The notes under the pieces are model-generated. The model ran no database searches. It saw only the letters and a program-made list of their open reading frames with translations, and was not told the DNA's origin. DNA of 64,000 nucleotides, from positions 77,975 to 141,974 of the forward strand of contig CAVVUS010000019.1 in the NCBI GenBank assembly GCA_963751345.1. Reading direction: 5' to 3'. Positions 57,880 through 61,356 of this stretch are shown here, in pieces (within the stretch, counting starts at the first letter, position 1; each line of letters opens with the position of its first letter). The translations under genes and the position numbers were made by a program. Origin of the DNA: an uncultured Chloroflexia bacterium (GTDB lineage: Bacteria > Chloroflexota > Anaerolineae > B4-G1 > SLSP01).

Positions 57880-59730
57880 TTACCTCTTCAGGAAGAACCT
57901 CACGCCGGTGATCACGTGGTACCGGTCGGCCCACTGCCGCCGCGGGTCGTAGAGCGCGATCCTGAGCGCGCGCGCTACCTGGTTGTGGAGCAGGCCCTGC
58001 CACCAGTGGGCGGCTACGAACTCGGGCAAGACCACGGTGACGTAGTCGCCTTCCTCACGCACAAAGGTGTCCATGTAGTCCACCAGCGGCTCGATGACGG
58101 CCCGGTAGGGCGAGGCTAGTATCTCCAGCGGTATGGCGGGGAAGAGCTTTTTCCACCGGCGCTGCACCTCGGCCGTTTGGTCCGCGTCCACGGCGACGGT
58201 CACCACACGCAGATCGCCCCTGATCGCCTGGGCATAGTGGAGTGCCTTCACGACGCCTCGGTGGACGGACTCGATCGGCACGATGACCGTGTGGCGGCTC
58301 ATGCGCTGGGGCCACGCCTTATCCAGCGAGAGCTGCGCGTCGACCGACTCGTAGTGGTGCCGGATGCGGCGGAAGAGCACCACCGAGAGGGCAATCAGGA
58401 CAAGCGTGATCCACGCGCCCTGGACGAACTTGGTCGCCGTGACGACGACAAAGACGATGCCCGTCGTCGTCGCCCCGATGGTGTTGAAGACGGCGGAACG
58501 CTTCCAGCGTGGCGGGCGTAGCTTGCGCCACCTGAAGATCATGCCAACCTGCGAGAGCGTGAATGAGATGAAGACGCCCGCGGCGTAGAGCGGGATAAGT
58601 GCGTGGGTCTCCGCGCCGAAGAGCACAATGAGCCCGCCGGCAGCAATGGCCAGCGCCTGGATCCCGCTTCCCAGGACGAGGCGATCGCCGATGTGCGTGA
58701 ACTGCTCGGGCAGGAACCGGTCCTTCGCGAGGAAGTTCGCCAGCCGAGGAAAGTCCGAGAAGCTCGTGTTGGCCGCCAGCAGCAGGATGAGGACCGTGGC
58801 CGCCTGGACGGCGTAGTAGAGCGGCCCGTCGCCGAAGACCGCGCGCGCCATCTGCGAGACCACGGTCTGGTCCTCCTGGGGCACGATGCCGAGCCGATTC
58901 GCGAGCAGCGTTAGCCCGAGGAACATGGTCCCCAACAGCCCGCCCATCCACAGCAGGGTCTTGCCGGCGTTATCGGCCTCCGGCTTCCTGAAGACGGTGA
59001 CGCCGTCGCTGATCGCCTCGACGCCGGTCAGGGCCGTGCAGCCGGAGGAGAACGCGCGCAGGATAAGGAAGAACGTCAAGGAGGCCATTGTGTCCTGCGG
59101 GATCACAGTACCCGCGACCCCAGTCGCCGCCAGGCTCCCCGTCAGGATGCGGTAGAAGCCGACGATGACCAGTGCCGCGATCGAAAGCATGAAGAAGTAG
59201 GTCGGTGCCGCAAAGACCCGCCCGGTCTCGCGCACGCCCCGCATATTCACGATCGTCACCAGGGCGAGCGAGCCCAAGGCGAGCCAGACGCGATAGCGTT
59301 CGGCCCCCGGAAACGCCGACGTGATCGCAGCGATGCCCGCCGAGACGCTGACGGCGACCGTGAGGATGTAGGCGATGAGCAGGGCCGCGCCCGCCGTGAG
59401 GCTCGCAATGGTGCCCAGGTTGTCCTTTGTCACCAGGTAGGCTCCGCCGCCGGTGGGGTAGGCGTGAATCGTCTGGAAGTAGGAGCTGACGACGATCAGC
59501 AGCAGCGCCGTGATGGCCACAGCAATGGGGAGCGTGTAGTGCAAGGCCCCGCTTCCCGCGACGACCAGCACGAGGAGGATCTCCTCCGTGGCGTAGGCCA
59601 CCGACGACAGTGCATCCGACGACAGCAGGGCCAGTGCCTGGACTTTGCCCAAGCGCTCGTGGGCTGCTGCCTCGGTCGGCAGCGGGCTTCCGATGAGAAA
59701 CTGCCTGATCTGGTCAATCACACCGGTCAT
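57880..59730 (-). CDS. kimA: APC-family transporter, KimA/YdaO-like (putative K+ importer)
   Basis: LSSDALSSVAYATEEIL, AYPTGGGAY, AFSSGCTALTGVEAISDG, AANTSFSDFPRL, LIPLYAAGVF, SPYR, WWQGLLHNQ. Confidence 0.8.
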   Translation of the reverse strand: MTGVIDQIRQFLIGSPLPTEAAAHERLGKVQALALLSSDALSSVAYATEEILLVLVVAGSGALHYTLPIAVAITALLLIVVSSYFQTIHAYPTGGGAYLVTKDNLGTIASLTAGAALLIAYILTVAVSVSAGIAAITSAFPGAERYRVWLALGSLALVTIVNMRGVRETGRVFAAPTYFFMLSIAALVIVGFYRILTGSLAATGVAGTVIPQDTMASLTFFLILRAFSSGCTALTGVEAISDGVTVFRKPEADNAGKTLLWMGGLLGTMFLGLTLLANRLGIVPQEDQTVVSQMARAVFGDGPLYYAVQAATVLILLLAANTSFSDFPRLANFLAKDRFLPEQFTHIGDRLVLGSGIQALAIAAGGLIVLFGAETHALIPLYAAGVFISFTLSQVGMIFRWRKLRPPRWKRSAVFNTIGATTTGIVFVVVTATKFVQGAWITLVLIALSVVLFRRIRHHYESVDAQLSLDKAWPQRMSRHTVIVPIESVHRGVVKALHYAQAIRGDLRVVTVAVDADQTAEVQRRWKKLFPAIPLEILASPYRAVIEPLVDYMDTFVREEGDYVTVVLPEFVAAHWWQGLLHNQVARALRIALYDPRRQWADRYHVITGVRFFLKR

Positions 59731-59786
59731 CCTCGATTCGATACTCTCTGCGATTCATATGTCCACGCCACCCTTGTCCCGCACCA

Positions 59787-59819
59787 CAACAGAAAAGGCC
59801 GCAACTCGTGTGCGGCCTT
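59787..59819 (-). terminator. Intrinsic terminator inside the 5' leader of the kimA-like gene (attenuator)
   Basis: Minus strand AAGGCCGCA-7 nt-TGCGGCCTT then TTCTGTTGT, ~60 nt before the start codon. Confidence 0.75.
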
Positions 59820-60000
59820 GGCTCTCAATCGAACTGCGCGTTTGGCACCCCTCGGGGCTATCTCGTATGCCGGCGTGCCTTCACCGCGCGTGTGCCAAGG
59901 TCGGCAGCACGCGCGCCCTCAGGGTCATCCTCGACCGGGTAGACGGGATCGATGGGCTCCAGAACGTTGTAGGCTCTTCGTGTTTCCATTTCGACTCATC

Positions 60001-60028
60001 ATTATGCCACAGGATCCGGTTCCGTCAA
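60001..60028 (-). promoter_or_regulatory. sigma70-type promoter for the kimA-like gene
   Basis: Minus strand TTGACG-16 nt-CATAAT with a TGn extension. Confidence 0.6.
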
Positions 60029-60222
60029 TCGCCGCAGCCGTCGGAAACCTTGCGAAGGTTCCGCAGCGCCTTCACTTGCAGGCAGCGGCGCTGCTCCACG
60101 TGCCCGCGATACCGGGCATGTCACTAACCTTCGCAAGGTTGGGCGCCACCTTGCGCCGCCCTCCGAACCATGCTACACCTCCAGCACCATCTTGACGAGC
60201 GGGCAGCGAGGAGAGGGCGACG

Positions 60223-61356
60223 ATGAAGATCACCGAGGTCAAGACGTACGTGGTGGGCAACCCGTGGAAGAACTGGGTCTTTGTGAAGGTCTGCACCGAC
60301 GAGGGGGTCACCGGCGTCGGCGAGGCCACGGCCGGCCTCAGCGCGAAACCGGGTGAGGCGCAGGTCCACGAGCTTGGCCGGTTCGTGGTCGGGGAGGACC
60401 CACTCCATCCTGACCGGCTGTGGCACCGGATGCACAAGGGGCTGTTCCTGGGATCGAACATCGGGATGAACGCGATCGAGATCGCCTGTTGGGACATCCT
60501 GGGCAAGGTGCTCGGGGTGCCACTATGGCAGCTGATGGGGGGCAAGCACCGTCCTGAGCTGCGCGTCTACGCCAACGGCTGGTACAAAGGCCCGCGCGAT
60601 CCGGTCTTCTTTGCCGAGGCGGCGGCCCAGGTGGTCGCGATGGGGTACACGGCGCTGAAGTTCGACCCCTTTGGCGCGGCGTACCGTTTCATGGACCGCG
60701 CCGAGGAGCGGCTCTCCCGCAGCATCGTCGCCGCGGTGCGCGAGGCTGTGGGTGATGACGTCGACATCCTCATCGAGGGCCACGATCGATTCAGCGTGTC
60801 GACCGCGATTCGCATCGGCCATTGGCTGGCACCCTTCACGCCGATGTGGTTCGAGACCCCGGTCATGTCCGATGACATTGCCGCCACGGTGGCGGTGGCC
60901 CGCGCGATCCCCGTGCCGGTTGCGGTGGGCGAGCGCTACCACCGGCTCGAGCAGTTCATCGATCTATTGGCGCATCGCGCCGTCGATATCGTGCAGCCCG
61001 AGACGCTCTCGATCGGCGGCGTTTCGGGCGTGCGCAGCGTGGTGGGGGTCGCGCAGGCTGCCAACGCCTTCGTGGCGCTTCATCAAGCGCAGAGCCCGCT
61101 CACCACCGCCATCAACGCCCACCTGCACGCCGCCATGGATAACTTCCTGATCCAGGAGTGCTTCGACGACTTCCTCGTGCCGTGGGCGCGCGAGATCATG
61201 CACGGCGTGCCGCGCGTCGTCAACGGCGCCCTGCCGGTCCCCGACGCGCCGGGCATCGGCGTGGAGCTCGACGAGGAGGAGATGGCCCGGCACCCGTATG
61301 GGGAGAACGCCTTCCTCCGCCTCTTCGAGGATGGCTGGGAGCGACGGGAGGCGTGA
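60223..61356 (+). CDS. Mandelate racemase/enolase-superfamily acid-sugar dehydratase (DgoD-like)
   Basis: NWVFVKV.TDEG.TGVGEA, IACWDILGK, VYANGWY, ALKFDPFG, EGHDRF, WFETP, GER. Confidence 0.9.
   Translation: MKITEVKTYVVGNPWKNWVFVKVCTDEGVTGVGEATAGLSAKPGEAQVHELGRFVVGEDPLHPDRLWHRMHKGLFLGSNIGMNAIEIACWDILGKVLGVPLWQLMGGKHRPELRVYANGWYKGPRDPVFFAEAAAQVVAMGYTALKFDPFGAAYRFMDRAEERLSRSIVAAVREAVGDDVDILIEGHDRFSVSTAIRIGHWLAPFTPMWFETPVMSDDIAATVAVARAIPVPVAVGERYHRLEQFIDLLAHRAVDIVQPETLSIGGVSGVRSVVGVAQAANAFVALHQAQSPLTTAINAHLHAAMDNFLIQECFDDFLVPWAREIMHGVPRVVNGALPVPDAPGIGVELDEEEMARHPYGENAFLRLFEDGWERREA

Follow-up and report, generated by a model that had tools for sequence, protein, structure and literature searches.

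A conserved DDPEG leader peptide and a terminator switch upstream of kimA: a probable attenuator family of the Anaerolineales

The gene for a KimA-type K+ transporter of the APC superfamily (57880..59730, minus strand) in an uncultured Chloroflexia bacterium (NCBI GenBank assembly GCA_963751345.1, contig CAVVUS010000019.1) is preceded by a leader that probably belongs to an undescribed family of leader-peptide attenuators of the Anaerolineales, of a known, MgtL-like kind and called here DDPEG after the core of its peptide. The stretch of DNA analysed, referred to as the window, is 64,000 nucleotides (nt) long, and positions are those of the window. That a translated leader peptide is coupled in this leader to a terminator switch, whatever the logic connecting the two, appears likely. 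With moderate confidence, and on the basis of folding models, it is further proposed that the kimA leader acts as a ribosome-mediated transcription attenuator organized around the conserved peptide, in which stalling of the ribosome would give read-through into the gene. An earlier note on this DNA had described the region as an orphan riboswitch or attenuator, distinct from the cyclic di-AMP (c-di-AMP) aptamer, that would sense K+, osmotic state or a nucleotide signal. Its view of the leader as a cis-regulatory terminator/antiterminator device is supported by the present analysis; the ligand-binding aptamer gives way to a reading frame, as the block upstream of the first hairpin is open and its conservation follows codons.

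The central element of the leader is an upstream open reading frame (uORF; METRRAYNVLEPIDPVYPVEDDPEGARAADLGTRAVKARRHTR; 59858..59989, minus strand) of 43 codons that starts at the ATG at 59989 and finishes at a TAG stop (59860-59858), and it is the sole small DDP[ED]G frame of its kind in the genome. Its codons GAT GAC CCT GAG GGC (59915..59929, minus strand) encode the conserved core D-D-P-E-G, the proposed site of ribosome stalling or destabilisation. Among 27 uORF peptides the residues D, D, P and G of the core are invariant and E is present in at least 90%. The coding character of this block was assessed in 28 distinct copies anchored on the motif by calculating the entropy at each codon position. 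The extended motif P-[VI]-x-D-D-P-E-G displays mean entropies of 0.46, 0.15 and 1.24 bits at the first, second and third codon positions, and within the D-D-P-E-G codons the values are 0 bits at the first two positions and 0.75-1.7 bits at the third, with the exception of the Pro codon. The codon following the motif Gly reaches 1.8-1.9 bits at all three positions, indicating that conservation does not extend beyond the motif. High-GC copies from the genus of the window and AT-rich Brevefilum copies such as MDKFQEFQAPVQDDPEGKLQG share the same peptide core (GC content judged by eye). Across 28 leaders the frame spans 19-43 codons, and the first residue of the motif is number 13 in the shortest uORFs and number 21 in that of the window (range, 13-25), with 2 to 18 codons between its Gly and the stop. 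Judged from these codon patterns, the conservation of the 5' block of the leader acts at the level of the peptide, and its periodicity lends indirect support to translation of the uORF. Searches with six of the peptides against NCBIfam at E-values up to 10 matched no model (0/6), and the search against Pfam returned a single chance-level match (E 0.063).

The distribution of the leader family was followed from the window outwards. Comparison of the leader with 61 relatives by BLAST gave partial matches twice in genome G015 and once in G010, at loci that share one layout consisting of a promoter, the conserved block, a terminator and a membrane-protein gene. Since the leader DNA is too diverged for BLAST, the search was moved to codon patterns. 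An order-wide pattern search allowing 2 mismatches produced matches about as frequent as those of a reversed-pattern control, and true copies were picked by reading their flanks; 11 copies were obtained in this way, each of them within a short open frame that possesses a start codon. Using one such protein, 80 Na_Ca_ex (CaCA) loci were fetched, several of them with less than 150 nt of upstream sequence. A small open reading frame (ORF) containing [DE][DE]P[DE]G lies upstream in 24 of these 80 loci, 6 more carry DDP[ED] followed by H, V, R or D instead of G, and in 1 further locus the uORF is cut by the end of the contig, which gives a total of 31/80. The uORF-bearing CaCA loci belong to the Anaerolineae (Anaerolineaceae, Brevefilum and Pelolinea), and further copies were found in genomes G031, G120 and G122. 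A pattern scan of metagenomes matched 75 stretches, of which 5 (4 distinct) are true copies, the remaining matches being attributed to chance in GC-rich DNA. A sample of 401 genomes of the phylum yielded no member of the family beyond the order: 13 matches in genomes other than that of the window were all rejected, as they lie in frames of at least 91 amino acids (12 of them in frames of at least 204) that encode unrelated proteins. Every other copy found stands directly upstream of a Na_Ca_ex gene and on the same strand; the four downstream proteins that were scanned all match PF01699, and the CaCA protein is distantly related to NCX_Mj (E 2.6e-11). Judged by titles and the openings of abstracts, the literature searched describes neither this motif nor any leader peptide belonging to a CaCA or KimA gene.

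Transcription of the leader is predicted to depend on a sigma-70-type promoter (60001..60028, minus strand) with TTGACG, a 16-nt spacer and the extended -10 element TGgCATAAT, which amounts to 10/12 consensus matches plus TG. The earlier note had placed a promoter precisely there, and a scan of 59500-60400 finds it as the sole promoter-like site (1 found against 0.1 expected in shuffles); the leaders of relatives, as read from their sequences, carry TATAAT at the corresponding place. Taking the start about 7 nt after the -10, the leader measures approximately 264 nt up to the ATG at 59730, in line with the length of about 265 nt claimed before. The ATG of the uORF lies 11 nt after the -10, leaving a very short 5' untranslated region, and the uORF ends 38 nt before the terminator arm, on the same strand and ahead of the terminator, as expected for the ORF of an attenuator. 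The whole leader does not fold more stably than shuffled sequences (z = -0.67; 50 of 200 shuffles fold as well), so the case rests on conservation and not on stability. As for the gene itself, its product is homologous to KimA (PDB 6S3K, E 1.6e-151 over residues 7-594), confirming the KimA-like transporter named in the earlier note, with Pfam matches to AA_permease_2 and, weakly, to K_trans. Its true start is probably the GTG at 59721, 8 nt after GAGGA, according to the N-termini of orthologues.

Downstream of the motif the leader contains two structures and an alternative pairing between them. Hairpin 1, a putative anti-antiterminator (59885..59915, minus strand), has a 5' arm starting at the last base of the Gly codon, and the antiterminator strand (CGACCTTGGC; 59894..59903, minus strand) is contained in its loop and 3' arm and forms an inverted repeat with the 5' arm of the terminator. 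This hairpin, already proposed at 59915-59885, is present in the minimum free energy (MFE) fold and has an energy of -23.2 kcal/mol in isolation. The intrinsic terminator (59785..59822, minus strand), also anticipated, is composed of a stem at 59819-59795, a 5' arm that extends to 59822 and the T-rich tail TTCTGTTGTG; a terminator scan recovered 1 against 0.5 expected in shuffles, and a hairpin followed by a T run precedes the gene in 28/28 leaders. The complementarity noticed between CCTTGGC (59900-59894) and GCCAAGG (59822-59816) is real and forms part of two 10-nt arms, 59894-59903 and 59813-59822, that are 90% complementary.

Conservation of these pairings was examined in class A, the subgroup of the window, which comprises 8 leaders in one alignment (A3) and all close kin. 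Pairing is retained in 84.9% of the alignment cells of hairpin 1, with 2 pairs changed on both sides, and in 100% of those of the terminator, where pair 144:167 is A-U in the window and G-C in the others. The antiterminator helix proposed in the earlier note is kept in 8/8 leaders, with 97.5% of cells paired versus 24-51% after the partner is shifted by 1-3 columns; at position 54:144 of this helix the window has U-A, 3 leaders have C-G and 4 have U-G. The pairing is conserved, yet covariation does not prove it, the 8 sequences being close kin. In 8/8 class-A leaders the terminator 5' arm finds its best partner 19-38 nt after the start of the motif. The nucleotides CCYTGGCRCACGC that follow the motif are kept in the eight and are read in three different frames, so that the peptide tails diverge (ARAADLGT.. 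in the window, AVVCLGAR.. in G010, AARRRPWRT.. in the others); by this comparison, selection acts here on the RNA as well. A second domain claimed at 59879-59844 had a mixed fate: this local stem spanning the uORF stop (59844..59879, minus strand) does fold in the MFE structure, and it is unconserved in relatives, falling in variable columns 84-119 with no consensus pairs.

That part of the leader is conserved as RNA whatever the reading frame, together with its terminator/antiterminator architecture, an invariant CCT codon in the motif and the lack of a match to any known Rfam family, is what would be expected of an orphan riboswitch, in which the leader RNA would itself be the binding site for an ion or a nucleotide signal, the open frame being incidental. 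This is the least probable of the readings considered. The most conserved block varies with a period of three nucleotides and its peptide is maintained from high-GC to AT-rich lineages, and every complete copy has an in-frame start codon and an open frame. Moreover, the RNAalifold consensus consists of hairpin 1 and the terminator alone, two plain hairpins without a multi-helix junction, with a covariation term of just -0.48 kcal/mol, and the region between them is variable. An Rfam scan and a search for covariation had been suggested before: the first agrees with the idea of an RNA outside the known families, and the second brings it little. At the gathering score, no Rfam family matches anywhere in the window, and within 59650-60300 at E-values up to 10 only noise was obtained and no match to RF00379, the c-di-AMP family. 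The noise included a match to STnc320 (24.5 bits against a gathering score of 50), which is the terminator read on the opposite strand, and matches to Actino-ugpB and asX2; all were rejected. As a positive control, RF00379 gives four matches above its cut-off (67-86 bits) elsewhere in the same genome, at C30:395383-395529, C40:101952-102095, C12:66628-66824 and C35:4669-4826. Therefore the leader is not a member of a known RNA family nor, by the tests run, a riboswitch, and the earlier statement that it is not the c-di-AMP aptamer holds. One of the four RF00379 riboswitches precedes an ORF with an ABC_membrane domain.

In Bacillus, kimA is regulated by the ydaO c-di-AMP riboswitch (RF00379) via premature termination. 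The kimA leader of the window differs from it in lacking an RF00379 match and in having a conserved core that is coding, and kimA in this genome is not under a c-di-AMP riboswitch, though the organism uses that class. A tempting misreading is corrected in this way, as a terminator/antiterminator leader in front of a gene that is riboswitch-controlled in Bacillus is found here to be, most probably, a translated element.

The promoter, ORF and terminator could also be seen as a complete unit, that is, as a separate gene, terminator included, that encodes a small acidic protein, in which case kimA or the CaCA gene would be expressed by leaky read-through or from an undetected promoter. In agreement with this, a profile built from the 27 peptides and run against 5.8 billion clusters retrieved 12 small proteins called by gene finders in public data, none of them named beyond 'hypothetical protein'. 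Such a gene is nonetheless very unlikely, given that the tail of the peptide is unconserved and its frame changes among close relatives while the RNA is kept, that the unit is always found directly upstream of a cation-transporter gene on the same strand, and that the alternative pairing with the terminator is conserved. In addition, the scan of 59500-60400 found no promoter-like site between the terminator and kimA.

A mechanism can be proposed from these parts for the attenuator favoured here. Transcription would start at about 59994, some 5 nt before the 43-codon uORF, which encodes the segment P-V-E-D-D-P-E-G, acidic and proline-containing and of a type known to be poorly translated by ribosomes, as in MgtL. 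Immediately downstream of the Gly codon lies the 5' arm of hairpin 1, which a ribosome lingering on D-D-P-E would cover. The loop and 3' arm thus freed (CGACCUUGGC) could then pair with GCCAAGGCCG, the 5' arm of the terminator, and RNA polymerase would read into kimA. With the ribosome at the uORF stop, or with the uORF untranslated, hairpin 1 and the terminator would form and transcription would end at about 59790. We infer the translation of the uORF, the stall or abort at DDPEG, the polarity (stall = ON) and the signal.

The behaviour of the nascent transcript was modelled by folding it up to the terminator 5' arm with a ribosome footprint, from -12 to +15 nt relative to the P site, made unpairable. 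In these models the free RNA of the window forms hairpin 1 and no antiterminator. With the P site on the motif Glu or Gly, CCUUGGC is predicted to pair with GCCAAGG through 7-9 pairs, and with the ribosome at the uORF stop hairpin 1 re-forms and the antiterminator is again absent. Over all eight class-A leaders, when the P site is on Pro or Glu, the antiterminator strand holds 8-11 nt of the terminator arm in 8/8, whereas 0 nt are held in 7/8 with the ribosome at the stop and in 5/8 as free RNA. Across lineages, footprint modelling gave a mixed outcome.

Several observations weigh against this mechanism, or against parts of it, and deserve to be considered together. In three of the 8 class-A leaders the free RNA already folds into the antiterminator, and when the full terminator is included in the folding the MFE structure retains it in every modelled state in 26/28 leaders, the terminator stem of L154 and L190 being present in some states only. 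Equilibrium folding with the full terminator and a broad scan of every P-site position did not tell the states apart. At the sequence level, the column shuffles reach the observed antiterminator pairing in 226 of 500 cases and no strict two-sided change is seen in the helix. The uORF of the window lacks a clear Shine-Dalgarno sequence, and its ATG lies about 5 nt downstream of the likely transcription start. The motif occupies residues 13-25 rather than the extreme N-terminus next to the initiator Met. Furthermore, among the copies found that of the window alone precedes kimA, which leaves the signal without a tie to K+.

The most serious objection comes from other lineages. In 14 of the 28 leaders, comprising the Brevefilum type plus L113, L150, L152, L158 and L165, the 5' arm of the terminator pairs best with the RNA of the motif itself, as exemplified by AUGACCCUGA with UCAGGGUCA; in 6/28 it has no clear partner. 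The Brevefilum-type leaders, which include L159, L161, L162, L164, L167, L190, L201, L202 and L209, constitute a second architecture of the same family. In the models of motif-pairing leaders, formation of the antiterminator would be prevented with a ribosome on the motif and possible with one at the stop, so that polarity may differ between lineages or the polarity proposed here may be wrong. This is the substance of the main rival explanation, which takes the same parts with another logic: instead of stalling elongation at the motif, the peptide would provoke abortive drop-off or slow the release at the uORF stop, read-through would require a ribosome located beyond the motif or no ribosome at all, and stalling at DDPEG would mean OFF. 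Beyond the 14 leaders, it draws on the wobble base of the second Asp codon, which tracks the terminator in L150 (ACCCUGA/UCAGGGU) and L158 (AUCCUGA/UCAGGAU), on several Brevefilum-type leaders in which the motif-terminator pairing appears only with the footprint at the stop codon, and on the invariant CCT, which fits pairing with UCAGG. In class A, however, the partner of the terminator arm is a separate element located after the motif and the stop-codon state yields no antiterminator in 7/8 leaders; the spread of 2-18 codons between motif and stop fits poorly with a peptide acting at termination, and several of the duplexes have modest z-scores (-0.7 to -4.8, with L113 above 0). Taking both sides into account, this rival is considered unlikely. 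Two further features of the Brevefilum type were noticed: these leaders keep CACAGAAC just after the uORF stop, complementary to the conserved terminator loop GUUCUGUG, and CUUCAGGG is a local pairing partner of their motif.

The Pro codon of the motif (59921-59923 in the window) is another point that a purely peptide-based mechanism does not accommodate, as it is CCT in 34/34 copies. The third base is free to vary in the neighbouring codons and all four codons are used for the Pro three codons upstream, and the invariance of CCT denotes, from these codon counts, a constraint at the nucleotide level beyond what the peptide model alone explains. An explanation based on tRNA supply was found too weak, since CCT accounts for about 12% of the Pro codons of the window genome, whose 93%-complete assembly yielded tRNA-Pro CGG and UGG only. 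A frameshift, suggested by YCC-UGA as a stop in the -1 frame, was dropped because the preceding codon is GAT in about one third of the copies. Pairing of CCUGA with UCAGG in the terminator fits the invariant codon in some lineages only.

The translated leader with stall-dependent read-through remains the preferred reading, and its favoured signal would be a state that alters the performance of the ribosome on an acidic and proline-containing sequence, such as cation supply (Mg2+, K+, Ca2+, polyamines) or the status of Pro-tRNA or EF-P. In one preprint, a DE/P-rich segment is defined as one with at least four of six residues being D, E or P, and strong destabilisation is placed at the extreme N-terminus (bioRxiv 10.1101/2021.02.02.429294). 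The segment E-D-D-P-E-G of the window has 5/6 such residues, and copies with Q, L or K before the motif (Q-D-D-P-E-G, for example) have 4/6. The EPDP sequence of MgtL is presented, in that preprint and in a review, as a Mg2+-sensitive abort signal that controls the cation transporter MgtA (bioRxiv 10.1101/2021.02.02.429294; 2026 review PMC12856214). By analogy, it is the mgtL-mgtA leader of Salmonella and E. coli that the DDPEG leader would resemble most in concept: going by these sources, both have a short acidic and Pro-containing leader ORF, and in both the fate of the ribosome would pick the leader fold and read-through into a cation-transporter gene. The two differ in several respects. 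No sequence relationship was detected (0/6 in NCBIfam), so that the DDPEG leader is not a member of the MgtL family; the fixed P-[VI]-x-D-D-P-E-G occurs at residues 13-25 instead of an EPDP right after the initiator Met; the terminator is intrinsic here and Rho-dependent there; and the hosts are Anaerolineales, with Na_Ca_ex or KimA regulated instead of MgtA.

Classical attenuators provide the second term of comparison. In the trp, his, leu, thr and pheA attenuators, a leader ORF is followed by a 1:2 hairpin, a 2:3 antiterminator and a 3:4 intrinsic terminator, and the position of the ribosome selects the fold. The modelling of the window follows this four-segment logic, with the DDPEG codons acting as the control codons. 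It departs from them in that consecutive codons for an amino acid that the operon produces are absent from the window uORF and the leader matches no Rfam leader, in that the conserved feature is a peptide motif, and in that the regulated genes encode transporters. To our knowledge, leader-peptide attenuators sensing something other than the amino acid of their operon are few, and those studied are almost entirely from Proteobacteria and Firmicutes. An abrupt end of peptide conservation is typical of arrest peptides, and the DDPEG leader shares with SecM, TnaC and SpeFL a conserved peptide segment that ends abruptly upstream of the regulated gene and is followed by free sequence. It is unlike them in having an intrinsic terminator as read-out and an arrest that is putative, and its motif is presumably also distinct from those of the three.

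A bolder proposal is that P-[VI]-x-D-D-P-E-G constitutes a sequence-specific ribosome-arrest module whose acidic nascent chain would report Ca2+, Mg2+ or K+ inside the ribosome, switching on the cation exchangers of Anaerolineales and, after rearrangement, KimA. The motif has what we take to be a resemblance to the DxDxDG calcium-binding loop. We regard this proposal as doubtful; if true, the module would be a second, independently evolved ion-sensing leader peptide after MgtL, this time with a fixed motif. Independently of its signal, an eight-residue conserved motif apparently tied to an intrinsic terminator switch on cation transporters in Chloroflexota would offer a testable system in which a nascent acidic and proline-containing sequence couples the performance of the ribosome to ion homeostasis.

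The presence of this leader on kimA seems, from the arrangement of the genes, to be the result of a transfer of the attenuator from a CaCA gene in the window genome. No PF01699 gene was found in the 93%-complete assembly of that genome, and none of 80 KimA-like loci from many phyla has such a uORF upstream. The closest kimA orthologues, with 65% and 64% identity (G015 and G016), lie immediately upstream of uORF-CaCA units and have themselves short plain leaders without a uORF. The window would thus represent a natural case of an attenuator re-used on another gene. Since the leader apparently moved from a CaCA gene, the inference of K+ as its signal, one of those put forward in the earlier note, is weakened, all the more as every other copy found precedes a Na_Ca_ex gene. 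The order kimA followed by uORF, terminator and CaCA gene is observed within the genus of the window in L258/L002 (G015:C61) and L259 (G016:C193), and G015 carries a second uORF-terminator-CaCA unit in tandem, with a TATAAT for each.

Traces of a rearrangement may be preserved around the start of kimA. A 12-nt stretch of the uORF (59923-59934; TCGAGGATGACC) is directly repeated with 100% identity at 59725..59736 (minus strand), on the Shine-Dalgarno sequence and start of kimA. A 16-nt direct repeat with 88% identity, 59893-59908 and 59668-59683, has its second copy within the first kimA codons and is collinear with the former. A 14-codon mini-ORF (ATG at 59758) overlapping the kimA start reads ..YRIEDDR.., an echo of YPVEDDP. 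On sequence comparison, the repeats and the mini-ORF may be the scar of the rearrangement that joined leader and gene.

Regarding the surroundings, the leader shares a 490-nt intergenic region with a divergent neighbour on the plus strand (60223-61356), which encodes a member of the mandelate racemase/muconate lactonizing enzyme family (MR_MLE_N, MR_MLE_C). A second, shorter KimA-like match is present in the same genome on contig C36:19350-20735, with 50% identity over residues 7-472.

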